DNA of 32,000 nucleotides, from assembly GCF_000092105.1 (NCBI RefSeq), contig NC_014148.1, positions 2,730,001 to 2,762,000 of the forward strand, read 5' to 3'. Shown here in pieces: positions 1-31,038 of this stretch. The stretch comes from Planctopirus limnophila DSM 3776. GTDB lineage: Bacteria; Planctomycetota; Planctomycetia; Planctomycetales; Planctomycetaceae. Made by a program: the position numbers and the translations under genes. The notes under the pieces are model-generated. The model had not been told where the DNA came from. It was given only the letters and a program-made list of their open reading frames with translations, and made no database searches. Positions within the stretch are counted from its first letter, which is position 1, and every line of letters starts with the position of its first letter.

Positions 1-339
1 AGGCATTGTGTGATTGAATTGGGCAAGTGGATCTTCGAGATCTGATGGCTTCAAATCTACAAGAAAAGTGCATACACGATTCGAGGACAGGCCCTTTGCC
101 AATGCACCAGACTCAAACAAAATCCAGGGGCGCTGACGATTTTCTTGGGTCAAGCAAACGATGCCAACTGACGTATCTTGCAGCTGGTCATGAATTTCGC
201 TGAACCACAAGGCACCACGATCGATGTCACGAGTGGAAAGCCATGGTCGGGTTGCCTGAAGGACACATTTGATCCAATCATTAAGAATCTCTGCGATTGC
301 TCGACTTCTCTCACCCGACCAACTGATAAACACCTTCAT
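1..339 (-). CDS. TIR-domain protein, N-terminal 113 codons only. The 3' end lies beyond the left window edge, so there is no stop in view and it is absent from the ORF track.
   Basis: Hand translation of the minus strand from ATG 339..337 gives MKVFISWSGERSRAIAEILNDWIKCVLQATRPWLSTRDIDRGALWFSEIHDQLQDTSVGIVCLTQENRQRPWILFESGALAKGLSSNRVCTFLVDLKPSDLEDPLAQFNHTMP, open through base 1. GGAG at 349..346 sits 6 nt before the ATG. The pattern FISWS..DI..G..W..I....GIVCLT.EN...PWI.FE.GA is the bacterial TIR/TIR-like signature, including the conserved Glu. Confidence 0.8.
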   Translation of the reverse strand, partial: MKVFISWSGERSRAIAEILNDWIKCVLQATRPWLSTRDIDRGALWFSEIHDQLQDTSVGIVCLTQENRQRPWILFESGALAKGLSSNRVCTFLVDLKPSDLEDPLAQFNHTMP

Positions 340-480
340 AGAATACTCCGAGATACTTCACATCCCCTAAACAGGGTTCACTACTGACATCAAAACCAAC
401 TCTAGTCTAGTCGCAATTAGCGCAGCGTTTCGCCACCTGAAACACCAACAAAGCACGAAGTTCACACCGCTTATCTATTC

Positions 481-927
481 TCAACGAGTGATACACTTCA
501 AAATCTTCTCGTTTACCTGAATCTTTTTCTCCTTCTGCCGACCTGTCAAAGCTCGCTTTCTACGAATATCATTATAGAACTTGTACTCCCAATCATTAAT
601 AAATCGCTGCTGGTGAGCGTATTCAATCATTGCGACATTGAAAGACCTTCCGGCATCCTCCCTCACATATCTAACCGACTTAAAAAGGTCATTTGACGCG
701 ATTTGAAGAAAGTTATTAACACATACATTTCCAACCTCTGTGGTGACGTTAGTAAACTGATTAACAATCACACATATCTCATTGATCGGATACTGTCCGC
801 ACGGGCATGTCAACGAAGTTTCCGAATGGTAGATCTGGTATAGACGCCACTCACTCCTCGCATGCTCCCAATCATCCGATTGACTGAGACATAAAATATG
901 TTCGTGAAGCTTCTGTTGGTTCGACAT
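481..927 (-). CDS. Hypothetical Cys/His-containing small protein of 148 aa from ATG 927. The ORF-track version 481..963 starts at a TTG.
   Basis: This is the only long ORF in the gap between the S8 peptidase stop (1035) and the TIR start (339), and it is on the same strand. It contains HEHILC and CPCGQYPINEIC...VGNVCVNNF, a possible metal-binding cluster, followed by a basic C-terminal helix. I do not recognise the family. Confidence 0.55.
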   Translation of the reverse strand: MSNQQKLHEHILCLSQSDDWEHARSEWRLYQIYHSETSLTCPCGQYPINEICVIVNQFTNVTTEVGNVCVNNFLQIASNDLFKSVRYVREDAGRSFNVAMIEYAHQQRFINDWEYKFYNDIRRKRALTGRQKEKKIQVNEKILKCITR

Positions 928-1034
928 TTCCAGACTCAGAAAGTTCTTCCCCAAAGAGTACAATTAGAAGCCCCCACAGCTTCCACGCCAATCGCGCAAA
1001 CGAAATTGAGACTCTCCAACACACATTTCACGCC

Positions 1035-3317
1035 TCACGAACGACGACGCACACGAATTCGAGATGCAAGTCTCAGATCCTGGGCCCCCCAAGACAGTTT
1101 CTCCATCTCAGTAACCATTTCATTGTATACATTTGCCTTCCCTTCCGGGTCCCGGATTGTAAGAAGCAAAACAAGCTTTTGGGGTTCCTTACACCTGAAA
1201 CCATCACGATTAAGAATCTCTAGATGAAGACGCCAGTTCTTACAAATAGGCCCTGCGGTAAAGGCCCGATAATAAAACTTCAGAGGAGACCACTTAAACC
1301 CCTCAGAGACCATACGAGCCTCACCACCCCGAGTTACGTCTTTTGGAGCGGGCCTGAGTTGAGGATTATATACTTCTTTCCCCGTTTCGTTATTCTTCAT
1401 TACTGTCCCTAAACTCGCCGTCAGGTTCGTACGACAGTACTCCATACCGAATCGCGCATCTGTAGGCGGATCGTAAGCTAAAGTCATGAAGACTTCCGCT
1501 CGCAATCCTTTATTGGGAATGACGAGAGAACTTGGCATGGGGAATTGATGCTTCTCAAAGAAATGGCGATCAGTCAATTCAGCATGAAAGATGACCGTAG
1601 CCGAGGACTGCGTGCAATTCAGAATTTCTGACACATCTCCCGGACTCCCAAAACCCTTATAACGAACATCCAGGGCATCTGGGCAGCCTGATCTAAGAAA
1701 TGCAGAATGGGCAATCAGTCCTTTGACATATGCCGGAGACAAATTGCCTTCTGGCTCAAGCTCGCGATATATGTTCGCGGCAATGTTTGAAATATGAGGA
1801 GCAGCAAAACTGGTACCAATATTCTCGGCCAGATTTCCGTGGCCATCTGTAGATACTACGCCGCATTGCAAGCAATCCCCAGTTTCATCACAGTTGCCAC
1901 CGTAGTGACTGACTTCTGGTTTAATGTAGAAATGTGGCGCGGGACCACGTCGCGAAAATCCCGAAGGTTCATCAATTCCAACACATGACGATTGATTACT
2001 GATGTGAGCGATCGATCCAACGGTCAATCCTCGAACGGAATCAGCAGGAGGACAGATTCGATCGTTCTCACCCAAGTTCTCTGGTGGCCAAGTGCGGAGT
2101 GGAGGTGTTTCATAGTTTCCTGCTGCAATTACAAACAGTACATTGCGCTTCTTTGCAATTGAGTCCAGCTTACAGGCCAGAAGCGAAAACCTCGCATCAG
2201 AACATGGTGTTGCTTGGCCTAGGGAAAGATTCCAAACTCTCACATCGGAGTGGTCGCGAACTGCATTCTCGATTACAGTAATTAAATCATACTCTGAGAT
2301 TTGACCACTAGCATCAATGGCAACCACGTCGACAACACGAGACTGCGCTCTTGGGAATCGATTATCTGCGCCATTTAGTGCCCGACTATTCGCGATTAGG
2401 CCAGCAACAAAACTTCCGTGATTGAAGTCGTGTTGCGTTTTGACCACCACATCACGTCTCGCCACGTATTCTTGAAGTCGCCTGTTGGTTGGATCTGTAC
2501 CACTGTCAATCACCCCAACAAGTCCATATTCCTTAGCTGGATCAAAACTTGGGAACCGCCTTTCGTCGAGTTTACCTACAATATTTGCCGCCGTACGAAC
2601 AAGGCGAAACTCAGGAAACAGTCCTATGCTTTGCGTACCCACGAAGGCTGCCAACGCTTTTATGGACTTCGTTGTCACGGATTTCACGGCGTAGACAGTT
2701 ACATCATCACCATAGTCAACCGCCTCAAGATCTGGCAACGCCTCTGATCTCGCAACAGCCTTAAACTCCTGCTCAATAAGCTTATCAACTGCGTCAACGC
2801 CGTGACGAAACAGGCGAATTCGAATGGGAGCGTTCTTCCTTTTTGCCGTTTTGGCTATATACTCTGGCGAATACCCTTCAAGTGCATCTTTTGCCTTAAA
2901 CGCAAGAAGGCGATTAAGTGTCGAAATGTTCGCTTGATGCTTTTTTGTTTGACCCTGCTCAATCTCATAAGCCAACGCCCTGAGCCCTTCGGAACTCACA
3001 CTTACCAACAACTCTGATGGACCTTCAACACCAATGATGGGGCAGGTTTCAGAATTAAACAAAGTGCCTGGCCGGTATGATTTGGCCCCTGCCTCAGGTT
3101 TCAGCAGGACTTTTGCTACGGCAGGGATTGTAGGATGTTCTGCGAACGAAGCCGAAAACTCCTTTCGCAGAGATGCAACTTCGCTTGAATACTTCTTGCG
3201 CAACTCTTGCGTGACAGGCTCAAAGATTTTTGTTTCGCCCCCAGCATTGGGATCGAGACGATAATCCAAGTCTTTACGGGCCAAAACCACCTTCATGGGT
3301 AAGAATATTTTAGGCAC
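1035..3317 (-). CDS. Subtilisin-like serine peptidase (MEROPS S8), IetS-like, with an N-terminal extension of about 260 aa and a C-terminal domain of about 200 aa
   Basis: The catalytic triad motifs appear in S8 order: Asp in GVIDSGTD, His in HGSFVAGLIA, Ser in GTSFAAPHISN. The oxyanion Asn lies in VIAAGNY. The start is GTG 3317..3315, preceded by AGGAG at 3329..3325 with 7-nt spacing. It overlaps the ATPase stop by 8 nt. An alternative ATG lies at 3296. Confidence 0.85.
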   Translation of the reverse strand: MPKIFLPMKVVLARKDLDYRLDPNAGGETKIFEPVTQELRKKYSSEVASLRKEFSASFAEHPTIPAVAKVLLKPEAGAKSYRPGTLFNSETCPIIGVEGPSELLVSVSSEGLRALAYEIEQGQTKKHQANISTLNRLLAFKAKDALEGYSPEYIAKTAKRKNAPIRIRLFRHGVDAVDKLIEQEFKAVARSEALPDLEAVDYGDDVTVYAVKSVTTKSIKALAAFVGTQSIGLFPEFRLVRTAANIVGKLDERRFPSFDPAKEYGLVGVIDSGTDPTNRRLQEYVARRDVVVKTQHDFNHGSFVAGLIANSRALNGADNRFPRAQSRVVDVVAIDASGQISEYDLITVIENAVRDHSDVRVWNLSLGQATPCSDARFSLLACKLDSIAKKRNVLFVIAAGNYETPPLRTWPPENLGENDRICPPADSVRGLTVGSIAHISNQSSCVGIDEPSGFSRRGPAPHFYIKPEVSHYGGNCDETGDCLQCGVVSTDGHGNLAENIGTSFAAPHISNIAANIYRELEPEGNLSPAYVKGLIAHSAFLRSGCPDALDVRYKGFGSPGDVSEILNCTQSSATVIFHAELTDRHFFEKHQFPMPSSLVIPNKGLRAEVFMTLAYDPPTDARFGMEYCRTNLTASLGTVMKNNETGKEVYNPQLRPAPKDVTRGGEARMVSEGFKWSPLKFYYRAFTAGPICKNWRLHLEILNRDGFRCKEPQKLVLLLTIRDPEGKANVYNEMVTEMEKLSWGAQDLRLASRIRVRRRS

Positions 3318-4413
3318 TAGCGGGCTCCTGATTCAAACGTTCTGATATATAGGACTGTGAAAGCCCGAAGAGCTCAGACAGCTTCTTCTGAGTGAACCGT
3401 TTCTTGTCAACCTTCCGAATCGCTCGAAGAATTGCAGCCACGTCGGATGTACCAGTAAAACGAGCACACATCTCAACTAAGTTGACTGATTGCTGATCGT
3501 TGACCACAGCCTCTCTTACCAGGTTTTCAGTAATGTCTTTAAGCTGTGCACCCGACATCCCCTCACTCAGGCACGCAGCGACCTCGACGTCCTGTGCTGT
3601 TGCAAACCGCCCCAGTACAAACCGTATCAGCTCCTGTCTCGCAGCCAGACCGGGAGTACTCATCTCGATTTTGTAGGCAAATCGACGCCAAACGGCAGGA
3701 TCAAGTAGGTGCGGATGATTGGTCGCCGCGAGAAGAACATGGTCCCGCCCCATTGCATCGATGTTTTGCATCAAACTAATCACAACTCGTTTCAACTCAC
3801 CTAATTCCCGATCGTCATCTCTCATCTTTGCCAACGCGTCGAACTCGTCAAGAAACAACACGCATGGACGTGATGCAGCGTGTTCGAAAAGTTGCCGTAT
3901 ATTCTTTGCAGTACTTCCTAGATAGGAAGAAATTAGTGCATCCGACCTAGCTGTGATGAGGGGATACTTCAGTTGTGCTGCAATATATCTAGCCAACTGA
4001 GTTTTCCCGACCCCTGGGGGACCATAAATAAGGAGAGATGGTGAGATACCGACACCGTTGGCAATCAGCCGATCAGCAGCCCTAAAATATAACAGGAATT
4101 GATCGACTACTTTCTGAACATCCTCCGAAAGGAAGACCGAAACATCGGCTTCAACTGGTCGCTCCTCGTCGGCAACTGGAATTCTTGATTCACCGTCCAC
4201 TGGCAGCAGTGCCTGGCCACCTTGTCGAGCTAGAGAGATGTTCGAAGCAGAACTCTTTCCGACAATCTGCCTCATACGCTTGGCAGCCGCCAACTCGCCG
4301 CCCGATTCGAGCCTGCGGGCAAGTGATTCCGAGTAGGCCAGCACTTTTTCGTGGTCGCCACTGGCAGCTCCCTCGATGATTTTATTGATGTCAAAAAGGT
4401 AGTCACGAATCAT
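3310..4413 (-). CDS. AAA+ ATPase (classic clade), IetA-like, with a C-terminal helix-turn-helix-like tail
   Basis: Walker A is GPPGVGKT and Walker B is VLFLDEFD. Sensor-1 is LLAATN and the Arg-finger region is VWRRF. The C-terminal KKLSELFGLSQSYISERL looks like an XRE-type HTH. The start is ATG 4413, with AAGGGG 7 nt upstream. Confidence 0.85.
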   Translation of the reverse strand: MIRDYLFDINKIIEGAASGDHEKVLAYSESLARRLESGGELAAAKRMRQIVGKSSASNISLARQGGQALLPVDGESRIPVADEERPVEADVSVFLSEDVQKVVDQFLLYFRAADRLIANGVGISPSLLIYGPPGVGKTQLARYIAAQLKYPLITARSDALISSYLGSTAKNIRQLFEHAASRPCVLFLDEFDALAKMRDDDRELGELKRVVISLMQNIDAMGRDHVLLAATNHPHLLDPAVWRRFAYKIEMSTPGLAARQELIRFVLGRFATAQDVEVAACLSEGMSGAQLKDITENLVREAVVNDQQSVNLVEMCARFTGTSDVAAILRAIRKVDKKRFTQKKLSELFGLSQSYISERLNQEPASA

Positions 4414-4460
4414 GCAGCGGCCCCTTGCGCGAATTTTCTCTGTTCACCAGCTCAAACGAC

Positions 4461-4489
4461 ATCGTATCGGCGATATTATCGTCAGTCAA
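4461..4489 (-). promoter_or_regulatory. Candidate sigma70-like promoter for the ATPase/S8 operon
   Basis: The minus strand reads TTGACT (4489..4484), a 17-nt spacer, then TACGAT (4466..4461), about 48 nt upstream of ATG 4413. The host sigma specificity is unknown. Confidence 0.3.
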
Positions 4490-4522
4490 TGCGATATTTT
4501 CGCAACAATTACCGATATTTTT
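4471..4522. promoter_or_regulatory. Three direct repeats of CGATATT(A/T)T(C/T) spaced exactly 21 bp apart; operator-like array
   Basis: The copies are CGATATTATC at 4471, CGATATTTTC at 4492 and CGATATTTTT at 4513. Copy 1 is the palindrome CGATA-T-TATCG (4471..4481). Copies 1 and 2 flank or overlap the candidate -35/spacer. A fourth copy, CGATATTATA, lies at 4805..4814. Confidence 0.45.
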
Positions 4523-4908
4523 GTCGGCTTTTTGGGCTTTCCGCTGCTGCTGTGTCTTCCTGGTTCTCCGCTAAGGTCAAAACCTGTCCTTTCTGACTTG
4601 AGTTTTGTTCGGATTAATTTGTTCGACCGAGACGACGTTTCGCAAAAATCCGATGCAGCCTCATTTTGAAGGAAGAGGGTTTCTCGGATTTTTGTCTTGC
4701 ACATCTCTCCAATTCATATTGGCACTCAAGTGCGACCAGCTTACCCGGTGGATTCTTGGTTCAATTTTGAACATGTAAGCGATTGTGATTGTACTCACGT
4801 ATTGCGATATTATAACTTGAGCATTCGCACCACCATATCAACAGCTCTCGAATAATACAGTTATAAGGAACCCATTCTCTTAATCGTCTCTATATATCAT
4901 TTTTAGCC

Positions 4909-5232
4909 TTAACTATTTGGCCCGTTAAATATTGTCGGCTTTGTGGGTGTCACTGCAATAACGGCTTCATACTTCACTCCAATTGCTATTGCCGCGATTT
5001 CAAGAACAAATAACGTTTTCGTGATAATATGCTGCTGAGTGAGGCTTTCAGGAAATGTTGCGACCCATGTCGTCGTAAGATTAGTTTTTTCCCACGGAGC
5101 AGATATATATTCATAGAATGTGTCTCTCTGAGTATCGCTTGCACTCTTGAGATCAATTGTTAGGATCGCGTTAATGATTTGAACCTTATAACTGAGGAGT
5201 TGATGTTCACGAGCGGGATTCCTTAGTTTCAC
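4909..5232 (-). CDS. Hypothetical protein, 107 aa, GTG start, AT-rich
   Basis: It is the only ORF in the AT-rich stretch immediately downstream (28 nt) of the glycosyltransferase stop. It has no ATG start, no clear SD and no recognisable motif. Confidence 0.3.
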   Translation of the reverse strand: MKLRNPAREHQLLSYKVQIINAILTIDLKSASDTQRDTFYEYISAPWEKTNLTTTWVATFPESLTQQHIITKTLFVLEIAAIAIGVKYEAVIAVTPTKPTIFNGPNS

Positions 5233-5259: not shown

Positions 5260-6885
5260 TCAGTCGCCAGATAGAACAAGCACCATGTCATGTACGTATT
5301 TCTCTGCATGAGTGATCAAGGATTTGTGAATTTCCCGCATTCGCTCGGGCGTGATGTAGTGGGCGGTCACCTGTTGGTTTTCGGGCTTGGGAGTGGTCTG
5401 TTGCCCCGCCTGAAACTGCCTGCTTTTGGTCAGGCTGATTCCGGCAGCGTGCAGCACCTGGGCGACGTGCACATCTTCCTGCCAATGCTGCTGGGGCTCG
5501 CTGGCTGCCACAATCGACACGGCTTTGGGGCTCAATAAATAACCGGCCCCGCCGCTGGCTGTCTCGAATGGCCTGCCCGCCGCCACACGCTGCGGGGTGG
5601 GAGCCCCGACGTAATCGGCGGTCATCCGGTCGCGGGCCAAGATTCGGGCCACATGCACATAGGTGTCATCGTCGCACTTCAGCACTCTGGCGAAATTTCG
5701 GCTTGATTGCAGCCACCGGCAAAACCAGATCGTTTTTTCGGTGAGATGCTGGTAATCGTCCGGGCAGGGGAGCAAAAGCATATCGCCCCGTTTGTCCGGC
5801 AGTTCAACCAGATCAGGACGGCCCACCAGAAACACCAGTTCCACATCGGCGGGCAAGTCTTTTCCCCAAGTCTGGCGAATGGCTTCCCGCTTCTCGCGAT
5901 ACCGGGCTTGCTCGTTGTCGGCTGACAGTACCCCAATGATCAGCCGTCGATAGTCGCTTTTTGGGATCGCTGCGGGCGCGGGTTGTAAAGTGGCAGAGGC
6001 TGGCATCTGCTGCAGCCGGTCGAGTGCCCCCACTTCGCGGGCAATCTCGTTGAATCGCTCGATCGAGAGCCGCCCGGGGGCTGTGTAGTTGGCCTGAATT
6101 TGCTGGAACGATGGGTAAGCGAGTTCGGCAAACCCCAGCAGATCATTCCGGGCTTTGACTGACCAGGCAAACCCCTTGTAGGGTGATCCGTCCGCATAGC
6201 CGTACAGATGAATCCAGCGAAGCCACGGCAGGCATTTCACAGAACGCCCGCCTTGCCGGTATTTTTCCGGGATGTAGGGCTCAATGCCACCATGGCCGCG
6301 AACGTCAGGATGAAAGCCCAGAAATGAATCCCGCTTGGCGACGAAACAGCCGGTTCCACAGGAATTGATTTCGAATGGGGCCGCGTGGGGGTTGTCGGCT
6401 GATGGGTGAGTCGCCCAGTCGCCCCAGTTGCCGTTGGATCCATATCTGGGCAGGTAATGCGTGCCGACGATCGCGGGTTTCCCATCTGCGTTGATCAGCC
6501 GCCGCCGCAAGTTCGGGCCGAAGTACAGCCCGTCGTCAATGGTCGCTGCGAACGCCACCAGCCGGACCAGAACACCCGTATCGAGGATCACATGGGAATC
6601 AATGCAGCAGACGGCATTGCCGGTCGCATGATCGAACACCGCTTGCTTGGCCGGGCCTGCTCCCGGAGGTTCGGGCAGGTGCAGATATCGAGCGTTCGCA
6701 ATGTCTGCAACATGTTCCCGTTCGGCTTTGATGTGGGTTTCCTTGGCCGATTGGGAAATGACCAGAATTTCCACCTGATCCGTCAGGCCCAGGTCGCGGC
6801 GCGTGCGTTGCAGATCAATCAACGTGAACCACAAAGCCCGCTGATCGTCACAAGTGGGAATGCCGATGGTGAGTGCTGGATTCAT
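5260..6885 (-). CDS. Two-domain glycosyltransferase: N-terminal GT-A/GT2-like domain fused to a C-terminal GT31 (beta-1,3-galactosyltransferase/Fringe-like) domain, 541 aa
   Basis: ATG 6885..6883 lies 2 nt after the fibre stop (6890..6888). The N-terminal domain has TIGIPTCDD, the CIDSHV (DxH) motif and GTGCFVAKRDSF. The C-terminal domain has IIGVLSADNEQARYREKREAIRQTWG, PDDYQHLTEKT and KCDDDTYV, matching the three classic GT31 motifs. Confidence 0.85.
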   Translation of the reverse strand: MNPALTIGIPTCDDQRALWFTLIDLQRTRRDLGLTDQVEILVISQSAKETHIKAEREHVADIANARYLHLPEPPGAGPAKQAVFDHATGNAVCCIDSHVILDTGVLVRLVAFAATIDDGLYFGPNLRRRLINADGKPAIVGTHYLPRYGSNGNWGDWATHPSADNPHAAPFEINSCGTGCFVAKRDSFLGFHPDVRGHGGIEPYIPEKYRQGGRSVKCLPWLRWIHLYGYADGSPYKGFAWSVKARNDLLGFAELAYPSFQQIQANYTAPGRLSIERFNEIAREVGALDRLQQMPASATLQPAPAAIPKSDYRRLIIGVLSADNEQARYREKREAIRQTWGKDLPADVELVFLVGRPDLVELPDKRGDMLLLPCPDDYQHLTEKTIWFCRWLQSSRNFARVLKCDDDTYVHVARILARDRMTADYVGAPTPQRVAAGRPFETASGGAGYLLSPKAVSIVAASEPQQHWQEDVHVAQVLHAAGISLTKSRQFQAGQQTTPKPENQQVTAHYITPERMREIHKSLITHAEKYVHDMVLVLSGD

Positions 6886-6887
6886 GG

Positions 6888-8174
6888 TTATGGTTCCTCG
6901 GGTGGCGGGCCTTCCGTTCCCGCTGATGTTCCTGTTCCGCCCCCTTCGCATGGGTAACTGGCTGTTGTTCCGCAAGGAACGGTCAAGGTGGCAGCAGTTC
7001 CAGGCACGACAAGTTGTGCCGGGCACGATCCACCCCCGGAGACACTGCAGGACGTGGCGAGGTTGTAGAGACTGTGAGTCACGCCACCGACCACACACCA
7101 GGCAGCGGCCGCCAGCGTGTAACTGCAAGTCCCTGTCGCAGCCGTCCCGGTTCCGCTCGTTGTCCCTGTCCCTGTTGGGGCCGTGGTGCCAGTGCCGCCG
7201 CTTGTTCCCGTTCCTGTGCCTGTGGGTGCCGTTGTCCCAGTGCCAGTGCTGGATGGATCGCCTGTGTTTGTCCCCTCGGTGGGTGGCGATGTTGGGCCGC
7301 TTGTCCCTGTCCCGCTGGTCGTTCCGGTGCCTGTGGGTGGAGTTGTTCCGGTTCCGGTCGTTGTCCCCGTTCCCGATGGCGTGCCTGTGCCACTCGAACA
7401 ATCGGCGGGGGCCGGGCCGCAAGGCGTGGTCACAATCTGACCGGGATATTCGCCCGGGTAATCAGGCGGGCAGGCTTCACAGCCATCTTGGCCGGAACAC
7501 ATGCCACCACTGCCGACAACCCAGGGGAACACACCCGTCCACTCCCAAGCCGTGGAGGCCAGGGGCGGACAGGTGGCTGTTGTCCCTGTGCCGGTATCTG
7601 TTCCCGTTCCGGTATCTGTGCCAGTGCCCGTTCCAGTGCTAGTGCTCGGCGTGCAATCGCCGCATGTGACCGGGACAAGCTCCAGTGTGGCTGGCCAGAG
7701 TGGTGTCATTTCATCAGGGGCCGGAGTCGCGGTCAGTGTGCGGGTGATCAAGCAATCCATGTCGTTCGTGCGGAAGGTGACGGTCTGACCCTGCAGGCTC
7801 AAGACAACCACCGGCGGCTCCGCCGATTCATTCATGCTGATCGACATGTAACGCAAGAGAGAGATGTCGGCAGAACTGGTTGTCCAGCCGCAATCACTCG
7901 ATCGGGAAAAGCATCGCGTTCCGTTGAACTGCTCCAGTTCGCCCCCAAAGCCGCTGGCCTCGATGCGGAAACACTCCGTTTCGCAATCAGTGCAGGGGGG
8001 CTCCTCATCCCATGGGCCGGTGAAGTCGATCGGGGGCCAGGGGCCGCCGACTGGGACGCCTTCGCCCTGGGGCCGTTGGAGTTTCCACAAACGCTCAATG
8101 TCCACGTCGTGGATGTTCCCCTTGCGCTCGAGGGCATTCAGTCGCTGCTCGAATGAACGGAAGTCTGCGGGCAT
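6888..8174 (-). CDS. Tail fibre / receptor-binding candidate with Thr-Gly repeat linkers and Cys-rich modules (428 aa from ATG 8174; alternative GTG at 8183)
   Basis: It is the last virion-type gene after the tape measure and tail-tip genes. AGGAG lies 8 nt upstream of ATG 8174. It has an N-terminal coiled segment, two (T-G)n tracts and at least 20 Cys. Confidence 0.7.
   Translation of the reverse strand: MPADFRSFEQRLNALERKGNIHDVDIERLWKLQRPQGEGVPVGGPWPPIDFTGPWDEEPPCTDCETECFRIEASGFGGELEQFNGTRCFSRSSDCGWTTSSADISLLRYMSISMNESAEPPVVVLSLQGQTVTFRTNDMDCLITRTLTATPAPDEMTPLWPATLELVPVTCGDCTPSTSTGTGTGTDTGTGTDTGTGTTATCPPLASTAWEWTGVFPWVVGSGGMCSGQDGCEACPPDYPGEYPGQIVTTPCGPAPADCSSGTGTPSGTGTTTGTGTTPPTGTGTTSGTGTSGPTSPPTEGTNTGDPSSTGTGTTAPTGTGTGTSGGTGTTAPTGTGTTSGTGTAATGTCSYTLAAAAWCVVGGVTHSLYNLATSCSVSGGGSCPAQLVVPGTAATLTVPCGTTASYPCEGGGTGTSAGTEGPPPEEP
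7128..7397 (-). repeat. Long degenerate (ACN GGN)n tract encoding about 90 aa of Thr-Gly(-Ser-Pro) low-complexity linker
   Basis: Residues 263-352 of the fibre read SGTGTPSGTGTTTGTGTTPPTGTGTTSGTGTSGP...TGTGTTAPTGTGTGTSGGTGTTAPTGTGTTSGTGTAATGT. Codons vary, so this is not an exact DNA tandem repeat. Confidence 0.85.
7575..7649 (-). repeat. Short Thr-Gly(-Asp) tract in the fibre gene
   Basis: Residues 179-203 read PSTSTGTGTGTDTGTGTDTGTGTTA. Confidence 0.8.
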
Positions 8175-8188
8175 GCCTGCCACTCCTG

Positions 8189-21624: not shown

Positions 21625-22761
21625 CTAACTCTGCTGCGTTTGGCCAGGCATCTGGAACCCTGCCGCAAACCGCGACAGACCAGGGGGCAGTCGATCGGCG
21701 AATTCAGCAGCTTTGGCCGCCAACTTGTCTTTCTCGGGTTCTTTGGCTGGTGGAGCGGAAAAGCTGACGGGCTGTGCTCCTGCCACTCCCAGCCCCCGCA
21801 AAGCATCGAGCTTGCTCTGCAGTTGCTTGTTTTCTTCGCCCACATCGAGAGCGAATTGGGCGGCGGCCTGAGTGAGCGAGAGCCCCTTGGCGAAATACTT
21901 GGCCCCATGCGTTTCGCCGAAGGTCTTCATGTAAAACTCGCCGGATGGCTTTTCTTCGTCCTCTGGCTCCTCATCATCGGAGAGACCATCCTTCGCGGGC
22001 TCGGTAGCCTGCTCGTCATTGCTCAAACCGGCTGAGTCCTCCGTGACTCCTCCGTTGGCCTCCAGGGCCACCGAAGTGCCGGTGTCTGCACCATAGGGGC
22101 AGATGGCCAGCCCCAGCAGTTCCCACTCTCGGAAAATCACCACGGGGCCTTCGACAGTCTGGCCGTTGACTTGAGCACTCTGGCCCGCCCCCAATTCCTC
22201 AATGCGGTATTTCCGCAGGTTCATGAGAATCGAGGCCTGATAGGGAACACCCAGGGCTGACTTGTGCAACACCTCGGCGGCTCGATCCTGCCCGAACGGG
22301 GTCAACATCCCCTTGATGACCAGCATCAAGTCCGATGGCTCGAAGACATCGGCATACCCCAGCACCTCGCCGGGGTTGTGGCAGTAATCGATCGTGATGC
22401 GGGGCGGGGCAGTCATCCCCGCGAAGTCATGCACGCAGCGATCCCAGTACCAGTGGGAAGCCACGCCACCTGTGCGAGCGTTGACCGTGACGGCCACACT
22501 GTCCGCTAAGCCAGTGGCTTCCTGCGGCTTGCCGTCCTCTCCCATGCCCTCTTTCGTGGTTTCGGAAAGTCCCTCTTTGCTGGCCTCACTCTCGGGCTCC
22601 TCGGTGTCATCGGACAAGCCCTCTTTGGTCTTGTCTTCGGTCGAGGTTTCGGAGAAGGCCCCCTTCTTGTGCCGGGGGTCGATCGTCAGCGCTGCCGCAA
22701 AGCACATCGCTTTGGCGGTCGGCTTGGCGCGTGGGGCCAGTGGCTTCGTGAGACTAGGCAT
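21625..22761 (-). CDS. Prohead protease / scaffold fusion candidate, 378 aa
   Basis: ATG 22761..22759 lies 2 nt after the portal stop. The central domain with ITIDYCHNPGEVLGYAD resembles the His region of HK97-type (S78) prohead proteases. It is flanked by acidic repeat linkers and ends in a helical scaffold-like tail. Confidence 0.55.
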   Translation of the reverse strand: MPSLTKPLAPRAKPTAKAMCFAAALTIDPRHKKGAFSETSTEDKTKEGLSDDTEEPESEASKEGLSETTKEGMGEDGKPQEATGLADSVAVTVNARTGGVASHWYWDRCVHDFAGMTAPPRITIDYCHNPGEVLGYADVFEPSDLMLVIKGMLTPFGQDRAAEVLHKSALGVPYQASILMNLRKYRIEELGAGQSAQVNGQTVEGPVVIFREWELLGLAICPYGADTGTSVALEANGGVTEDSAGLSNDEQATEPAKDGLSDDEEPEDEEKPSGEFYMKTFGETHGAKYFAKGLSLTQAAAQFALDVGEENKQLQSKLDALRGLGVAGAQPVSFSAPPAKEPEKDKLAAKAAEFADRLPPGLSRFAAGFQMPGQTQQS

Positions 22762-24238
22762 TGTCCTCTCCCTCTCCATTTGGGGGCTGTGATGGCTCGG
22801 CAGCTTGGGCCAGCTCGGAGAGCGTCTTGTCGTCAATCTCGGAGACCGAGACGCTCTTCTTGCGCATGTAGTCTTCTTCGCGGGCCAGCTCATCGACGAT
22901 CTGGTAGAAGTCCGTTCCGCGAAGTCGGCAAATCTGAGTGCGGGAGGCCAGCCGCCCGCGAACAGCCGCCAGATCGGCTGTGATTTCTTTGAGTGGATCA
23001 ATCCACGGGAGGCCCGCATGTATCCAGCTCCAGCGCATCAGCTCGATCTTGACGCGGCTCGGAATCTGGTTGTTCAGCAGAGCGACAGCCAGCCGCCACT
23101 TGAGGAGATGGTTGCGCGTGCGAATGGGGAGCTTGCGGCTGTTATGGGCCGATTGCTCATACATCAGCAGTGCCTGACGGCTGCCGGAATAAGTGCTGAA
23201 GCTCTCGTTGTAAAACGAGTAGGGGATGTCGAACGTCTTCAGGGTCAAGGCCAGCATCTGCTGGAAGAAGGCGGCCGTATCGGCGGCAGGGGTGCGGCTT
23301 TCGAGAAACTCGGCCCGGTCGCCCACATCAAGGTCAAGAATCCTCTGACTGTTGAGGTTGATCTTGCTGTAGTCCTGGGCGTTTTCTTCGTCGTAGGTCT
23401 CCTGCGTTAAGCTGGCAGGATCACCACGAAAGAGCACCAGGCCAAAGAGCTGGGCCAGCTTGATCTTGCCCAGGGTGTAATCAAATCCTTCGTAGAGGTC
23501 TTTGAGCGGATTGAGGCCAGCCGCCAGTGGGCTGATGCCGCGCGTCTGGTCGAATCGCTCGAAGCTGGCATACAGCAGCATGTCCCGCACGGGCACCATG
23601 CGTTCAAACTGGAAATCGAGACCGATCTGGCCGTAATCGGTGGTCTTCGCCCGGCGGCAGACGGCATACGCCAGAGCTCGGCCCGCCTGGTTGACATCAG
23701 TCTGCACGCCATGGATCACTTGATCCTTGGGCACATCGTTGGGGAGCCCGTTGTAAGGCGTTCTGATGCGATCCCCTTCGATGGCCTGCAACTGGCCAGT
23801 CTCCAGCTTCAGCATCCCGCAATCGCCATCGATACACCGGCGGCCCTCGGCGACTCGCAAAAAGCCGTCCATATCCATGCGGTGCGCGGCGTCGAAGTTT
23901 TCGGGCTGGCTCCATTCGGCCACAAAGTCTTCGAGCCACTGATCCGTGTAATCGTCGCCGGACTTGGCATCGAACGAGAAGGTGGTCGTGTAGTCGAGAT
24001 GCTTGCGCACCATCCACCCCACAACACTGAAATTCTGCTCGATCGTGCGGCTGTCAGAGAGCAACCGGCGGCGGTCTTCAGCGTTCAGTTCCGCATCGGC
24101 ACTGCGGACAATTCCATCAGCCGGACGGCGGCGGCCATTGTTCTTGACCGCGTCATACGCGAATGCCCCTTCGAGTGATTTGGCAAAGGCCAGACCAGCT
24201 CGGCGGACAAACGGCGGCAGATAGGCACCGATGGGCAA
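22754..24238 (-). CDS. Portal protein, lambda gpB-like family, 494 aa
   Basis: It sits between the gpW-like and protease genes. The C-terminal WIHAGLPWIDPLKEITADLAAVRGRLASRTQICRLRGTDFYQIVDELAREE matches the lambda-family portal signature. The start is TTG 24238, 3 nt after the gpW-like stop. Confidence 0.8.
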   Translation of the reverse strand: MPIGAYLPPFVRRAGLAFAKSLEGAFAYDAVKNNGRRRPADGIVRSADAELNAEDRRRLLSDSRTIEQNFSVVGWMVRKHLDYTTTFSFDAKSGDDYTDQWLEDFVAEWSQPENFDAAHRMDMDGFLRVAEGRRCIDGDCGMLKLETGQLQAIEGDRIRTPYNGLPNDVPKDQVIHGVQTDVNQAGRALAYAVCRRAKTTDYGQIGLDFQFERMVPVRDMLLYASFERFDQTRGISPLAAGLNPLKDLYEGFDYTLGKIKLAQLFGLVLFRGDPASLTQETYDEENAQDYSKINLNSQRILDLDVGDRAEFLESRTPAADTAAFFQQMLALTLKTFDIPYSFYNESFSTYSGSRQALLMYEQSAHNSRKLPIRTRNHLLKWRLAVALLNNQIPSRVKIELMRWSWIHAGLPWIDPLKEITADLAAVRGRLASRTQICRLRGTDFYQIVDELAREEDYMRKKSVSVSEIDDKTLSELAQAAEPSQPPNGEGEDNA

Positions 24239-24814: not shown

Positions 24815-26926
24815 TTACCAGGTCATTTCATACGCCTTGGGTTCCCGCTTCTTGCGGCCCTTGGGCTTGGTGCTGGCCGCTTCCTCGCTGGCCAATGAAA
24901 GTTTGATTTTCCCAGTCGTCGAAGCCGCCACGCAGGCCATTTTCAGGCAGTCGGCGAAGTGGTTGTCACTGAGTCCAGGCCGCAAATCAAAGCGGTCGTG
25001 AATCTCGCCCGTCGTGGTGGTGAATGTGCCGGTCTTGATTTCGGCGTCGATGTGGTCGCCGAACATCTGGTGCGGGGAAGGGCGTTCTATCCAGAGTGTG
25101 AGGGCTCCCCGAGTCCCCACAGGGACGGTCAACCGGTCGCGGTGGAACTTGATCCAGAGATTGGAATCGAAGGTGCATTCCCGCACCTTCCGGCCCTTGG
25201 CCACTGGTGGAATGCACCAGCCGTTCCCCTGTTGATGCCTAACGTCATTGATGTACCGCAGCGGTTTCCCGCTTCCTTTGGCTGGCATGAGTTGCGACTT
25301 GAAGGGCGACTCCGCGCAGAACTTCCGCACGGTGTCGGTCTCAAAACCCATGTCAACAAAAGCCCGCTCAATGCGCAAGGTTTCCCCATCGGGTTTCTTC
25401 CATTCGCGGGATAACTTTTCAGTCATCAGTTGCGACAGGCCTTGATAAATGCGGCCCGGGCGGTCAGTTCCCCGGAACTTGCGAGAGAGTGTCCGGCGGG
25501 CATCGGCCAGCGAATAGTAGGCCCGTTCCTGATCCGGGAAAGAGCCGTAGTCAATCACCGCCCCCGAGAAGTTGGCCGCCCAGGCCACGATCACATAAAA
25601 GAGCAGTTCGCCTTGCACGTCGGTGCCCATGGTCAGCAGGACAGTTTCCGGCGGCACCACACCGCGAGCATATCCACTCAGCCGCTCTTTGATGGCATGA
25701 GCCGACAGGGCGGCATCATCTTCCTGAGCGGCGGCGGGGTCGTTCTGGTATTCGGCAAAGAAGACATAGCGGTCTTTGAAGAACAGGTGCATGGCCGATT
25801 GAATGGCACTGATTTCATCTTCTTCGAAGCGTTCCTCCCAGGCCGCCGTGAAACCTTCTTCCAACTCGGTCTGATGCTTCCGATAGAACGCATTCCGCAA
25901 CTGGCCCCCGTCGTTCAAGTGATGGCTCTGCACCATGACATCGGCATACTCCAGCCACCGTTGCCACTGCTCCCCCTCCAGCTTGGGCATGGCCAGCATG
26001 GCACACCGCTTGCCGTGCCACTCCGGGTGGAGCTTGTGATCGAGGAAGCGGTCAGAGAGGTCTTTGGGGGCAATCACTGTGCAGCACATGACGGCAGATA
26101 TCTTTTGCCCTGGGCCTGCCAGACCCAGCACAGCTCCGGAAATGAGACGCTCCCGTTTGTCGTTCTGGTCGGGGCTCACTGCTGATTTGTCCGTCTGCGG
26201 ATCATCGAGCAGCACAAAGCCCGGGCGGATTTTCTTCCCATCGGGGAGACGATGCTGCAGGCCTCGAATGCGGCCCGTCAGACCAGCCACGCCGATGATG
26301 GCTCCAGCGGCTTTGCTGCCCGGGATGTTGGGCAACACAATCCGGGTTTTCGTGAAGAGCATCCGCACGGGCTTTCCGGCGAATAACAATCTTCGCTGCG
26401 GCACTCCTTCCAGCCGGGCGATCGGGTAGCAGGTCTCGGGGTAATCGGCCAGGAGCAGCTCGTTGGTTTCCAACTCGTCTTTGATCCCGGCCAGCATCTC
26501 TTTGGCGGCCCCTTCCGTGGCACCGATCAACACAAAGAAATGTTCATAGCCGTGGAGGATGGCCCACAGGCAGACCCACAGAGCCAGTGAGGTCTTGCCA
26601 CTCCCTCGGGGCATGGCGAGACAATAGCAGCCTCCATCGGTAATGGTGCTCTGCATGGTCGCGAGCACTTCGCGGTGGTCGGGAGACCAGCCCAAGCAAA
26701 ACGTCTTGGCCCCATACGTTTCGCAGAAGAATTGCAGATCATGGGCGGCCCGCTCTCGGCGTGCCGGTTCGGCCACCTCGGGCATCTCCGGGGCGATGTC
26801 GCGAGCCTGGGCCGATTGCTCTCGCTGGCGTTGGCCTTCGCGGGCTTTCTTCTGCTCGTACCGCTCTTGCTTGTTCTTTGGATCAGGTGCTGGCGGCTCG
26901 GCATCCTTTCCAGCAAAGAAGCTCAA
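24815..26926 (-). CDS. Terminase large subunit, 703 aa
   Basis: Walker A is AMPRGSGKTS and Walker B is FVLLDDPQ. The C-terminal half is nuclease-like. It lies upstream of the gpW-like and portal genes. The start is TTG 26926, overlapping the upstream stop. Confidence 0.85.
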   Translation of the reverse strand: MSFFAGKDAEPPAPDPKNKQERYEQKKAREGQRQREQSAQARDIAPEMPEVAEPARRERAAHDLQFFCETYGAKTFCLGWSPDHREVLATMQSTITDGGCYCLAMPRGSGKTSLALWVCLWAILHGYEHFFVLIGATEGAAKEMLAGIKDELETNELLLADYPETCYPIARLEGVPQRRLLFAGKPVRMLFTKTRIVLPNIPGSKAAGAIIGVAGLTGRIRGLQHRLPDGKKIRPGFVLLDDPQTDKSAVSPDQNDKRERLISGAVLGLAGPGQKISAVMCCTVIAPKDLSDRFLDHKLHPEWHGKRCAMLAMPKLEGEQWQRWLEYADVMVQSHHLNDGGQLRNAFYRKHQTELEEGFTAAWEERFEEDEISAIQSAMHLFFKDRYVFFAEYQNDPAAAQEDDAALSAHAIKERLSGYARGVVPPETVLLTMGTDVQGELLFYVIVAWAANFSGAVIDYGSFPDQERAYYSLADARRTLSRKFRGTDRPGRIYQGLSQLMTEKLSREWKKPDGETLRIERAFVDMGFETDTVRKFCAESPFKSQLMPAKGSGKPLRYINDVRHQQGNGWCIPPVAKGRKVRECTFDSNLWIKFHRDRLTVPVGTRGALTLWIERPSPHQMFGDHIDAEIKTGTFTTTTGEIHDRFDLRPGLSDNHFADCLKMACVAASTTGKIKLSLASEEAASTKPKGRKKREPKAYEMTW

Positions 26927-28077: not shown

Positions 28078-31038
28078 CTAATCGGGGATCATTCCAAAAA
28101 AACCCAACTGAACAGAAACCTTTATGTCGAGCGGAAGACCTAACAGCTGCCACTTTTTTTTATCGTTACTCTTCAAAACGACAGTTGGAAATCCATTTTC
28201 GTATGACCTTCTGCAATACCCCGATTTTCCTTTCTCTGGGACAACATTTCCTTCTCCATCAATTTGAAAACTCCCATCCCCTTGTGAGTTTAACTCAAAC
28301 ATTGCAGCACGATTAGCACCATTTGTATCAACCAGAAAAGCATGTCCAACGAACGATGAGATTGCTTTCATCTCATCTGACTGGCCATTACTTACAACCA
28401 ATGAATGCACTTCGTTAATAAACTTCATTCGAGCGAACTCCTTAGTGAATACACTTCGTACTTCTCTGCACATTTGACTGACTACATCTGAAACATCGCC
28501 TGGCCACATTTCTAAGATGAGATCAGATGCCATTCTCTTTCCGAAAACACTTGGTGACCCAGCCAGTATTCGCGCACAGAAGACAACGGCAGTTGCCCTC
28601 AAGAAATGGTCGGATTTCTTCGAGAGAAGCCTAAACTCCCCAAATACTCTTTTGAGAGTCTCCTCAGACAGGACATAAGGGCCAACATGGCAAAGCGCTC
28701 TGACGGAAGGAATACGAGTCTCATCATCAGTCAATAGTTGTGCAAGATCATCGACGCACTCGACAAACTCGCTTGGTGACTGGCAGCGTGCAATTGCGGA
28801 AGCTACGCCTCGCTTCACAGTAGTGCCTCCCGCTCGCAATTTCTCCACGGCATCCTTAACCGAAAGCCCAAAAAAATCTCGACCCTCCCATGGACGTTTG
28901 ACTTCAGGAACTAGCGGGGGTTCTGGTTGCTCGTCAAGGACTGTATCCCGGGAGGACGTTAGCACATCAATAAACTCCCTCGCAGTTCTCATAATCTGTG
29001 CAATAGGCTCTAGACCAAAAGTAGCATCCCTGAAGTCCCACTTGTTCGAATCGGACTGCTCACTAAGAAGTGAGCCATTCACACATTTATCCAAAAGCGA
29101 CCTTCGAACACCTTCCATCCAGGCTCGCGCTTCGCTTGCACGAGGGTGAGAATTGTTTTCCCTAAGTTCAGCTTCAAGAAGGGAGAGAATTCTAAAGTCC
29201 GTGGCTCCATCCGCTCTTCCTTCATAGCCTACCGAACCAACGACTCCAAAGGCCTTCGCATCCTTCTCATCCTGGAACGGTAGGGCAAAGCCATTACTCG
29301 GGAATGTCGATGTATCGGATCTAAAGGACTCCCACGTTAATGGCCTCAAGTGCGTGCTGTAGCACTTTCGCCGCTCGCCGTGCCTTGCTTCAGGTTTAGC
29401 TCCTGCAGGCAACGGATCTGGGGGAAGGTAGGTCGGACCGGTCGAATAGGCGTAAACGCGATTCCCCTTGAGACCCAGCGCCCATGTGTACACGCCGGAA
29501 TAGAATCGATTTGTCCGATAATTCGTAGATCGAAAAGCAAATGAGTAGGTCCATACCTCGACTCTCTGTCTCGCCGCCTCTGCCATCAATTCAGGCGAAA
29601 TTGAACCGGCGAGAACTTCCCAGACGCTGAAGAGATCCCCGAACGAAATGACTGCACCAATTCCCAATGGTGTTTCTGTTCGGAAATACTCCTGGCGACT
29701 CATAAGGATGAAAGCGCCTCCGATCTTGTCTTCGTCCGGCGTAAGCCATAAGGGCTCTTCGGCAGTTTTGAGAATTATCTCAGGCCAGTTTCGTTCCTTC
29801 CCTGCGCGATACAATGCCTCAACGGGAATGTGTTCATCACCGTCGTTTCCGACTCTTGAAACCATGTCAGTGGCGGTTGGAACGTCATTTAGCTGGCTAT
29901 CATTAGTCAATATTGGAATACCATTACAACCGAACTCAAAGCCTTTCGCATTGTCAATCATTGAATTTAGAATGTCATGTGGATATGCAATTGTCGCATT
30001 TTTGTATGGTGCTACGCGGTAGAGGGCATCAGCGTTCTCATTTTGAAGGTCATAATATGATTTTACTCCATCTCGATAGGGCGTTGCACCCTCACCAAAA
30101 TGGAGTAAGTGCTTTTCAGCATCGACCCAATCAGCAGGGCTTGCGAGGCTTTCGGGAAGTATCTTTCCATTTTGGAATGCTCGGAACGGAGCAGTCAGCT
30201 TGCCATCCTTCAGAGTTCCTTTAAAGAGCAATGGTGGCCAGATATCCAAGGACACGGTATTGCATTCGTGTTGTTGCATGTCCTCGTAGTATGCACTCAT
30301 ATGCGTTTCGGATAGGCCACCCTTTTGGACACATGGTCGGACTTGTGAAGTGTTGATTTTACTTGGTTCGAAAAAAAAGCCGAAGACCGCGTGGCATCTT
30401 GGGAGAGGCACTTTTCTGGTTGTGATCGTGAGGTTCACTTGCTCTCGGTAGGTCGTGCCGTCGGCAAGCGTCGCACAAATGGTGATGGTTGCGGAAAGTG
30501 ATGGTCGATAGATGGGAGTGTCGAGCTTGTTGAAGATGAACCATTTTCCGGTTGAGCGTCCAGCTTCCAGTGATTCGTTGACTGAGTTGGGAGCTACGCT
30601 GCACAGGTTGTCGCTGTAGACGAAGGTTGGTTGCCAAGTGCAATGTGTGTTTGGTATCGGAAGCTGACCGCGAGGAGTTATATAGAACAGGGAAAAGATG
30701 CCAGGCCCATTGATGTTATCATCAGCCCATTTGAAGGACTCAACCCAGACCCGGCGCACGGTCTTCCGTAAGAAGATGCCAATCTGGAATGAAGTCCGCT
30801 CATTTTGAAATCGCGTTAGCGAGATGGCTCCTCCGTTCAGCAACTCATCAGTTGTGGGAGTGTAATCTTGAAAGATCGGTTCATTGATTTTTGGGATGAA
30901 GAGTTGAAAGGGTTTGTTGCTGGAGGGGAGCGAGCCGAGACTGTTTTGAGGCGGGGCAATTGTGTCGAGCACTTTTTTATCCCAAAAGATTTTTACCGAC
31001 GAGCCTTGTTGCAACTCGTCCGAGTGTTCTATGTTCAC
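28078..31038 (-). CDS. Large AT-rich cargo protein, 986 aa: GH123/DUF4091-like N-terminal beta-sandwich and central domain, HEAT/ARM-like helical repeats, and a small C-terminal beta domain
   Basis: It is a single uninterrupted ORF in an island of about 40-45% GC. The N-terminal VKIFWDKKVLD...ISLTRFQNERTSFQIGIFL matches the characteristic start of GH123/DUF4091-type glycoside-hydrolase-like proteins. Residues around 740-870 look like HEAT repeats. It has a GTG start and no SD. Confidence 0.7.
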   Translation of the reverse strand: MNIEHSDELQQGSSVKIFWDKKVLDTIAPPQNSLGSLPSSNKPFQLFIPKINEPIFQDYTPTTDELLNGGAISLTRFQNERTSFQIGIFLRKTVRRVWVESFKWADDNINGPGIFSLFYITPRGQLPIPNTHCTWQPTFVYSDNLCSVAPNSVNESLEAGRSTGKWFIFNKLDTPIYRPSLSATITICATLADGTTYREQVNLTITTRKVPLPRCHAVFGFFFEPSKINTSQVRPCVQKGGLSETHMSAYYEDMQQHECNTVSLDIWPPLLFKGTLKDGKLTAPFRAFQNGKILPESLASPADWVDAEKHLLHFGEGATPYRDGVKSYYDLQNENADALYRVAPYKNATIAYPHDILNSMIDNAKGFEFGCNGIPILTNDSQLNDVPTATDMVSRVGNDGDEHIPVEALYRAGKERNWPEIILKTAEEPLWLTPDEDKIGGAFILMSRQEYFRTETPLGIGAVISFGDLFSVWEVLAGSISPELMAEAARQRVEVWTYSFAFRSTNYRTNRFYSGVYTWALGLKGNRVYAYSTGPTYLPPDPLPAGAKPEARHGERRKCYSTHLRPLTWESFRSDTSTFPSNGFALPFQDEKDAKAFGVVGSVGYEGRADGATDFRILSLLEAELRENNSHPRASEARAWMEGVRRSLLDKCVNGSLLSEQSDSNKWDFRDATFGLEPIAQIMRTAREFIDVLTSSRDTVLDEQPEPPLVPEVKRPWEGRDFFGLSVKDAVEKLRAGGTTVKRGVASAIARCQSPSEFVECVDDLAQLLTDDETRIPSVRALCHVGPYVLSEETLKRVFGEFRLLSKKSDHFLRATAVVFCARILAGSPSVFGKRMASDLILEMWPGDVSDVVSQMCREVRSVFTKEFARMKFINEVHSLVVSNGQSDEMKAISSFVGHAFLVDTNGANRAAMFELNSQGDGSFQIDGEGNVVPEKGKSGYCRRSYENGFPTVVLKSNDKKKWQLLGLPLDIKVSVQLGFFGMIPD

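Follow-up and report, generated by a model that had tools for sequence, protein, structure and literature searches.

The ietAS genes were described as a plasmid-stabilization pair resembling a toxin-antitoxin system, in which the protease is the toxin and the ATPase its antitoxin, and they have anti-phage activity of unknown mechanism; a three-gene variant with a helicase, ietHAS, also exists (PMC13069673). For phage assays in Escherichia coli, ietAS was cloned as a two-gene unit, and the system is often prophage-borne and reportedly synergistic with a co-resident Zorya II system (10.1101/2022.08.21.504612). Evangelion, a defence system with a TIR-like core, consists of a single DUF4062/TIR-like gene for which depletion of nicotinamide adenine dinucleotide (NAD+) and abortive infection have been proposed (bioRxiv 10.64898/2026.06.25.731849). 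Here, these systems are compared with a block of four consecutive genes at the left end of a 32,000-nucleotide stretch of Planctopirus limnophila DSM 3776 (the window), encoding an AAA+ ATPase, an S8 subtilisin-like peptidase, a small four-cysteine protein and a TIR protein.

The first-pass annotation of the window offered two readings of this block, either adjacent systems in a defence island or a composite system joining a TIR module to a protease under ATPase control, and stated that no described system of this exact composition was known. The block very probably represents three units that are mobile independently of one another and lie stacked head to tail, namely ietAS, a small zinc-binding protein and a single-gene TIR. 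The adjacency of separate systems was anticipated correctly, with three units in place of two, while the ATPase and S8 peptidase correspond to a described system, IetAS (PADLOC, NCBIfam and the literature), that had been missed. The gene calls confirm all four genes in place on the minus strand, and Pfam assignments (AAA, Peptidase_S8 and TIR_2) agree with the domain identities first given. Only the 5' part of the TIR gene falls within the window, and the remainder was recovered from the same contig in public assemblies (L001), which extends the locus past the left edge of the window. The small and TIR proteins match annotated proteins of P. limnophila DSM 3776 at 100% identity. The genes of the block are as follows:

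4413..3310, minus strand: ietA, AAA+ ATPase, 367 amino acids
3317..1035, minus strand: ietS, S8 subtilisin-like peptidase, 760 amino acids
927..481, minus strand: small four-cysteine protein, 148 amino acids from the ATG, with an alternative upstream TTG at 963, the start taken in the first-pass annotation
339..1, minus strand: TIR gene, 5' part, running off the window edge, with 113 of 273 codons inside the window
L001:12979-13800: TIR gene, full length (Plim_2105), 273 amino acids

The ietA-ietS pair

On the basis of end-to-end matches to family models, the ATPase and S8 peptidase constitute the already described IetAS system (gao_iet; IteA/IteS at NCBI). The ATPase matched the PADLOC IetA model PDLC02196 with an E-value of 4.2e-130 over residues 5-363 of 367, and the peptidase matched the IetS model PDLC02197 at 2.6e-251 over residues 5-756 of 760. 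Matches to the NCBIfam models IteA_antiphage (1.5e-126, 422 bits) and IteS_antiphage (6.5e-202, 673 bits) fell under the curated cut-offs of 510 and 900, respectively, and the pair is therefore considered a diverged member of the family rather than an equivalog. It belongs to a planctomycete branch of IetAS whose nearest relatives are metagenomic sequences, 57-66% identical. Pfam placed an AAA domain (8.7e-31) and a weak helix-turn-helix (HTH) domain, HTH_3 (6e-4, C-terminal segment 329-361), in IetA and a Peptidase_S8 domain (8.4e-32) in IetS. The catalytic motifs are intact in both proteins, comprising Walker A (GPPGVGKT, 131-138) and Walker B (VLFLDE, 185-190) in IetA and the triad D271 (IDSG), H300 (HGSFVAG) and S503 (GTSFAAP) in IetS.

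On a shared strand, ietA lies directly upstream of ietS, its stop overlapping the ietS start by 8 bp (3310-3317), and the same overlapping arrangement was observed in all 22 related loci described below. We regard ietA-ietS as a translationally coupled, two-gene defence pair resembling toxin-antitoxin systems. By the mechanism put forward in published work, the AAA+ ATPase would hold the toxic S8 protease in check, and infection or the loss of the element would free it. The enzymatic activities of the block in DSM 3776, and its defence phenotype, are inferred. The pair extends the range of IetAS to a planctomycete prophage.

Linkage of the three modules in other loci

To establish whether the genes of the block are associated elsewhere, linkage was assessed from three sides, using loci sampled from genomes, metagenomes, plasmids and viral contigs that were retrieved via short peptide patterns, with neighbouring genes taken from simple open reading frame (ORF) calls. 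The IetAS sample comprised 22 loci, with four close contig sets, a Dongshaea plasmid and 12 viral contigs among the sources. In the closest pairs (IetS 66, 64, 57 and 57% identical; IetA 63-73%), IetA was encoded directly upstream with the same overlap, and the genes downstream of ietS were unrelated, being short ORFs, an ABC1 kinase with a PIN gene, or convergent genes. The pair on the Dongshaea plasmid (38% identity, annotated IteS) and those on the 12 viral contigs (31-49% identity) had the same arrangement, without a small or TIR gene. Hidden Markov models (HMMs) built for the TIR domain and for the small-protein family, applied at E <= 1 within approximately 6 kb, matched at none of the 22 IetAS loci.

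The same result was obtained from the other two sides. The TIR sample consisted of 68 loci (61 IMG/VR viral contigs, a Crateriforma chromosome, metagenomic contigs and E. coli), none of which carried a homologue of IetA, IetS or the small protein. The small-gene sample consisted of approximately 125 loci, of which 31 were from genomes, 80 from metagenomes (of 165 confirmed), nine viral and five from exact look-ups. Translated searches (tblastn) over all of these found no IetA, IetS or TIR of this kind, and in the 111 genome and metagenome loci a TIR-domain HMM specific to the family, run at E <= 10, gave no match up to 5 kb from the small homologue. Among the sampled loci from elsewhere, the three modules were never neighbours in any pairing. 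The four-gene order, for which the first-pass annotation had proposed a conservation survey, was not found in any sampled locus, an outcome that the annotation itself had named as counting against a composite system, and the coupling of a TIR module to an ATPase-controlled protease finds no support in this complete lack of linkage.

There are also observations that weigh against three independent units. Close IetAS contexts are few (four distinct close relatives and 13 more distant), and the TIR loci derive mostly from a viral-contig collection, giving a bias towards prophage settings. The roughly uniform low guanine-plus-cytosine (GC) content of the islet in which the block lies makes a single acquisition event conceivable, and the short gaps and lack of recognisable terminators leave room for read-through co-transcription. 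Further, independently mobile co-resident systems can act synergistically, as ietAS reportedly does with Zorya II (10.1101/2022.08.21.504612). As to functional cross-talk in DSM 3776, nothing in the sequence or comparative data calls for such coupling, and we infer that there is probably none.

The TIR gene and the small four-cysteine protein

The TIR protein matched Pfam TIR_2 (1.8e-07), the PADLOC model 'TIR-TM' (PDLC03016; 3.9e-59, residues 1-197) and phrog_13899 (2e-88, residues 1-199), and it has both the N-terminal TIR core and the conserved helical extension of the latter two. The core contains FISWSG and an invariant glutamate, Glu76 (LFESGALA; family form LFE[ATS]GALA). In an alignment of 26 homologues, 79 positions including E76 were invariant and residues 1-195 were highly conserved, followed by a variable C-terminal region of approximately 70 residues that is encoded outside the window. 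The likeness to 'TIR-TM'/phrog_13899 thus extends to strong matches, a length class of approximately 270 amino acids and a prophage-borne location. The difference is that, despite the name of the model, no transmembrane segment was predicted in this TIR or in 25 relatives, with Kyte-Doolittle 19-residue mean maxima of 1.51 for this protein and 0.69-1.51 across the 26 family members against a usual threshold of 1.6. Family members P0047, P0062, P0096 and P0097 have precomputed GerE or sigma-70 region 4 HTH matches beside TIR_2. The variable C-terminal region is suggested by these sequence matches to be possibly HTH-like in part of the family.

Homologues of the TIR protein are numerous (2,779 matches) and occur across phyla, and no report on the phrog_13899 family was found in the experimental literature, nor did literature searches tie the 'TIR-TM' model to a particular system. 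An AlphaFold2 (AF2) model was poor, with a predicted local distance difference test score (pLDDT) of 63 overall and below 50 in the TIR core; the Foldseek matches to it were meaningless (E >= 1.5), and a search of PDB sequences with the family profile gave no match. In E. coli, a homologue 67.5% identical over residues 1-194 (L126:8001-8816 and L206:3001-3828; one prophage allele is WFY01042.1) stands alone in lambdoid prophages, flanked by antiterminator Q and the lambda-family holin and oriented opposite to them, and 25 of 5,426 complete genomes carry it. Homologues at 62-69% identity are solitary and have their own upstream regions of 300-700 bp. Over all 68 TIR loci, the only recurring neighbours were antiterminator Q, DUF968 and lysis genes, and there was no conserved same-strand partner.

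These observations identify phrog_13899 as a solitary prophage cargo gene, conserved across phyla, for which the E. coli homologue provides a ready experimental model. The TIR protein is most likely a single-gene sensor-effector whose core, on activation, would degrade NAD+ by way of Glu76 and abort infection, with the variable tail perhaps setting specificity; this mechanism is proposed because of the biochemistry of bacterial TIR proteins and the analogous design of Evangelion.

The small protein shows in the family alignment four invariant cysteines (C41, C43, C52 and C69) within a three-stranded sheet region, and its C-terminal half is basic (isoelectric point 10) and helical. There was no match to it in Pfam, PADLOC, NCBIfam or PHROG, nor in PDB sequences searched with the family profile. 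The family itself is large, with an exhaustive profile search returning 2,545 clusters at 50% identity (398 with E-values under 1e-30), and it includes longer members (P0255 and P0256) with three to four tandem copies of a C-terminal WExxFY...LSxKQ...I motif. The AF2 model of the small protein was confident (pLDDT 91.2, predicted template-modelling score 0.80). Foldseek found no fold neighbour in the PDB (best E 0.2, template-modelling (TM) score 0.21), and the matches in BFVD were weak (TM <= 0.46), to uncharacterised proteins of iridoviruses, pithoviruses, poxviruses and a few phages.

The genomic neighbours of the small gene vary. They include HsdM/HsdS, an HTH-ResIII helicase, CapP, GajA/GajB (Gabija) and RhuM, with the small gene wedged between HsdM upstream and HsdS downstream in type I restriction-modification operons. 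They also include housekeeping genes, namely DUF1553/DUF1501, Hsp90, SecA and an aminoacyl-tRNA synthetase. Of 102 loci, 87 had a co-directional upstream neighbour, at a gap of 50 bp or less in 39 of them, and 64 of 93 had a co-directional downstream neighbour, so that the small gene behaves as a trailing or embedded hitch-hiker. At one locus (L117:2437-2883), a 59%-identical small gene lies between DUF1553 (PSD1) and DUF1501 genes, with gaps of 25 and 76 bp, an insertion that suggests that the small gene moves on its own. It may be viewed as an orphan zinc-binding protein carried in varied operons, many of them concerned with defence, most often as a trailing gene on the same strand, and the best guess from its sequence features is a Zn-dependent nucleic-acid- or protein-binding accessory enriched in defence neighbourhoods. 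It is possible, if doubtful, that the family constitutes widespread portable add-on genes which join the 3' side of a host operon and act in phage defence or counter-defence, either alone or as modulators. Such a role would point at IetAS as the trailed operon here and at Gabija, type I restriction-modification, CapP and HTH-helicases elsewhere. The small-protein family, which is large, recurs in defence operons and lacks a library model, is the only unexplored element of the block.

The position of the small gene, 107 nucleotides after ietS, together with its general habit of trailing a co-directional gene (elsewhere including GajB, HsdM and CapP), could be explained if it were a third, accessory gene of this IetAS variant that modulates the protease, as ietH is in ietHAS. 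This is very unlikely, given that the small gene was found at none of the 22 IetAS loci, the four closest relatives included, and that it also trails housekeeping genes such as DUF1553 and Hsp90, from which it follows that a trailing place implies no functional tie.

A partnership with the gene on its other side, in which the small protein would be the sensor, regulator or antitoxin of a two-gene module with TIR beside an independent IetAS, is likewise very unlikely. The two genes share a strand across a gap of 141 nucleotides, and the small domain is fused elsewhere to effector-type domains, in P0303 to Abi_C (1.6e-18) and in P0341 to a region with a weak nucleoside 2-deoxyribosyltransferase-like match (8e-5, below cut-off). 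Further, the closest small homologues (61% identity; L114:8001-11236, L115 and L116, planctomycete-like metagenome contigs) head a co-directional array of the small gene, a gene for a 173-amino-acid protein and one for a 369-amino-acid DEDDh exonuclease (RNase_T; PADLOC PDC-S48 1e-24), followed in L115 and L116 by a fourth gene for a 309-amino-acid protein and in L114 by a 367-amino-acid gene on the opposite strand. This array is a possible separate candidate system. Against a small-TIR module stand the failure of both the TIR HMM and tblastn to find a TIR near small homologues, the lack of a small-family gene at all 68 TIR loci, and the solitary state of the closer TIR homologues with upstream regions of their own. 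The fused domains do not recur among small-gene neighbours either, as a Rosetta-stone search with Abi_C and the C-terminal extensions of P0276, P0280, P0341 and P0343 gave no match.

Prophage setting and comparison with known systems

The interpretation of the block as three separate units is consistent with its setting. PHROG matches on the minus strand, upstream of the islet, identified a large terminase (24815-26926), a portal (22754-24238) and a head maturation protease (21625-23019). All called genes of L001 are co-directional, as are all large ORFs at approximately 5260-31955 of the window, on the minus strand. The islet is cargo inside a prophage or prophage remnant, or at its distal end, past the structural genes, and because the whole surrounding prophage is co-directional, the shared strand of the four genes is no evidence of a unit. 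The AT-rich composition of the block reported at first pass was confirmed, with 41-50% GC (GC at third codon positions, GC3, 0.37-0.49) against 59-63% (GC3 0.64-0.77) in the flanking genes. The low-GC islet spans 5.7 kb, from approximately window position 5260, at the stop of a glycosyltransferase-like gene, to approximately 490 bp past the left window edge, at the TIR stop. The block is horizontally acquired low-GC cargo DNA. Its remaining features within the window are as follows:

928..1034, minus strand: ietS-small spacer, 107 nucleotides
340..480, minus strand: small-TIR spacer, 141 nucleotides
4414..4908, minus strand: region upstream of ietA, 495 nucleotides, AT-rich, 43% GC
4909..5232, minus strand: orf107, a doubtful ORF of 107 amino acids, 41% GC, at the upstream edge of the low-GC islet

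The gaps between the four genes are short (-8, 107 and 141 nucleotides), and neither spacer (928-1034 or 340-480) yielded a terminator on scanning, in keeping with the initial description. RNA folding of the spacers was no better than that of shuffled sequences (z = -0.06 for ietS-small and +1.08 for small-TIR), and the ietS-small spacer has an 8-bp hairpin after ietS, without a U-tract. No recognisable promoter was found in 928-1034, nor a promoter-like site in 340-480, and promoter-like matches were at chance level (9 found against 6.1 +/- 2.4 expected), so that they do not bear out the first-pass statement that the sole obvious promoter/operator region is the one preceding the ATPase gene. 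Comparison of the spacers with related loci, made to define cassette borders, gave chance-level matches only. The description of gaps and terminators is accurate, yet it says little on whether the genes form an operon. The AT-rich stretch preceding ietA (4414..4908), which is a possible candidate promoter/operator for ietAS, contains two sigma-70-like matches (4489-4461 and 4406-4379, both chance-level sites). It also contains a 20-nucleotide imperfect inverted repeat (4694-4675 / 4662-4643; L001 8624-8675), 80% complementary with arms 12 nucleotides apart, that could, with the weak C-terminal HTH_3 match of IetA, form a putative autoregulatory operator.

Sites of integration were also sought. 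No tRNA attachment site was found near the islet, where a search for known RNAs gave one sub-threshold tfoR match, and no integrase was found at the locus. A 17-nucleotide pair of direct repeats (15/17 identical) brackets the islet at L001 8706, just upstream of ietA, and 13786, at the TIR stop; it was rejected, as chance alone would yield approximately two pairs of this kind over 7.4 kb and eight similar families are present.

Several neighbouring genes were observed in passing. The doubtful orf107, called as a gene in L002 and without a call in L001, encodes one hydrophobic segment (Kyte-Doolittle maximum 1.87 at residue 74) and has no match in Pfam, PADLOC or PHROG. Downstream of the TIR gene, a 290-bp spacer is followed on the same strand by a high-GC N6/N4 DNA methyltransferase (L001:14091-14900, approximately 770-1580 bp past the left window edge; PADLOC MTase_II 7.5e-51, type II-like), with no restriction gene visible beside it before contig L001 ends. 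Just upstream of the terminase region, a second low-GC segment (28078-31038, minus strand, 45-50% GC) encodes a 986-amino-acid protein that has no match in Pfam, PHROG or PADLOC and may be another orphan cargo gene. At 6888-8183, also on the minus strand, a 431-amino-acid ORF (428 amino acids in L001) without a family match contains long Thr-Gly/Gly-Thr-rich low-complexity runs; its neighbours are unannotated 632- and 990-amino-acid proteins and a two-domain glycosyltransferase at 5260-6885 (Glycos_transf_2 and Galactosyl_T), and together these may be prophage tail-fibre or host-modification genes.

A composite four-gene system, in which IetA would read a TIR-generated nucleotide signal or NAD+ depletion and free the IetS effector, with the small protein as adaptor or regulator, could draw on the single strand, short gaps and lack of detectable terminators, the single contiguous low-GC islet and the capacity of IetAS to take on further essential genes, seen in ietHAS with its helicase (PMC13069673), and is nonetheless extremely improbable in the face of zero module co-occurrence in 22 IetAS, 68 TIR and approximately 125 small-protein loci, the cloning and assay of IetAS elsewhere as a two-gene unit, the occurrence of the TIR family as a solitary prophage gene and a co-directionality common to the entire prophage. 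Had it been correct, it would have represented a new signalling-to-protease immune architecture; as it does not hold, the locus is better annotated as IetAS and two unrelated cargo genes. A general lesson is that, within a prophage, neither a common strand nor close spacing of genes says much for their being a functional unit.

Comparison with other TIR-containing systems places the TIR gene outside each of them. It shares with Thoeris, the analogy raised by the first-pass annotation, a bacterial TIR protein with a conserved putative catalytic glutamate in a defence context, and differs in belonging to a family found elsewhere as a lone gene. The analogy did not hold, and Thoeris membership was rejected, as no ThsA-type effector (SIR2/SLOG, Macro or transmembrane) was found next to TIR and no ThsA model matched, its neighbours being the small Zn protein and the type II-like N6/N4 methyltransferase, and the ThsB1 model matched marginally over a 28-residue stretch (E = 4.1e-4 and 1.6e-3). 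Membership as a CBASS or Pycsar TIR effector was rejected given that no cyclase was found at the locus and no fused nucleotide-sensing domain (SAVED or cyclic-nucleotide-binding) in the TIR protein, for which Pfam CAP12-PCTIR_TIR scored 0.0024, below the cut-off. Evangelion is similar in design, since it too is encoded by one gene carried on mobile elements and joins a conserved TIR-like core to a diversified auxiliary region; the TIR protein of the block has Pfam TIR_2 as its core and not DUF4062, with no DUF4062 match at E <= 0.01, so that membership was rejected and the resemblance is one of design only.

The islet as a whole resembles prophage moron and defence hotspots in being of foreign composition and in following the structural genes, with the E. 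coli TIR homologue at the Q-holin junction, and differs in that the P. limnophila prophage is otherwise unannotated. The closest correspondence is that with IetAS, which the locus pair resembles in its end-to-end family-model matches, ATPase-then-protease order with a stop/start overlap, intact motifs and mobile-element or prophage location, differing in its scores under the curated NCBIfam cut-offs and its place in a planctomycete branch. The block adds a new planctomycete member to known kinds of system, with an uncharacterised TIR prophage family and a small-protein family as by-products of the comparison.

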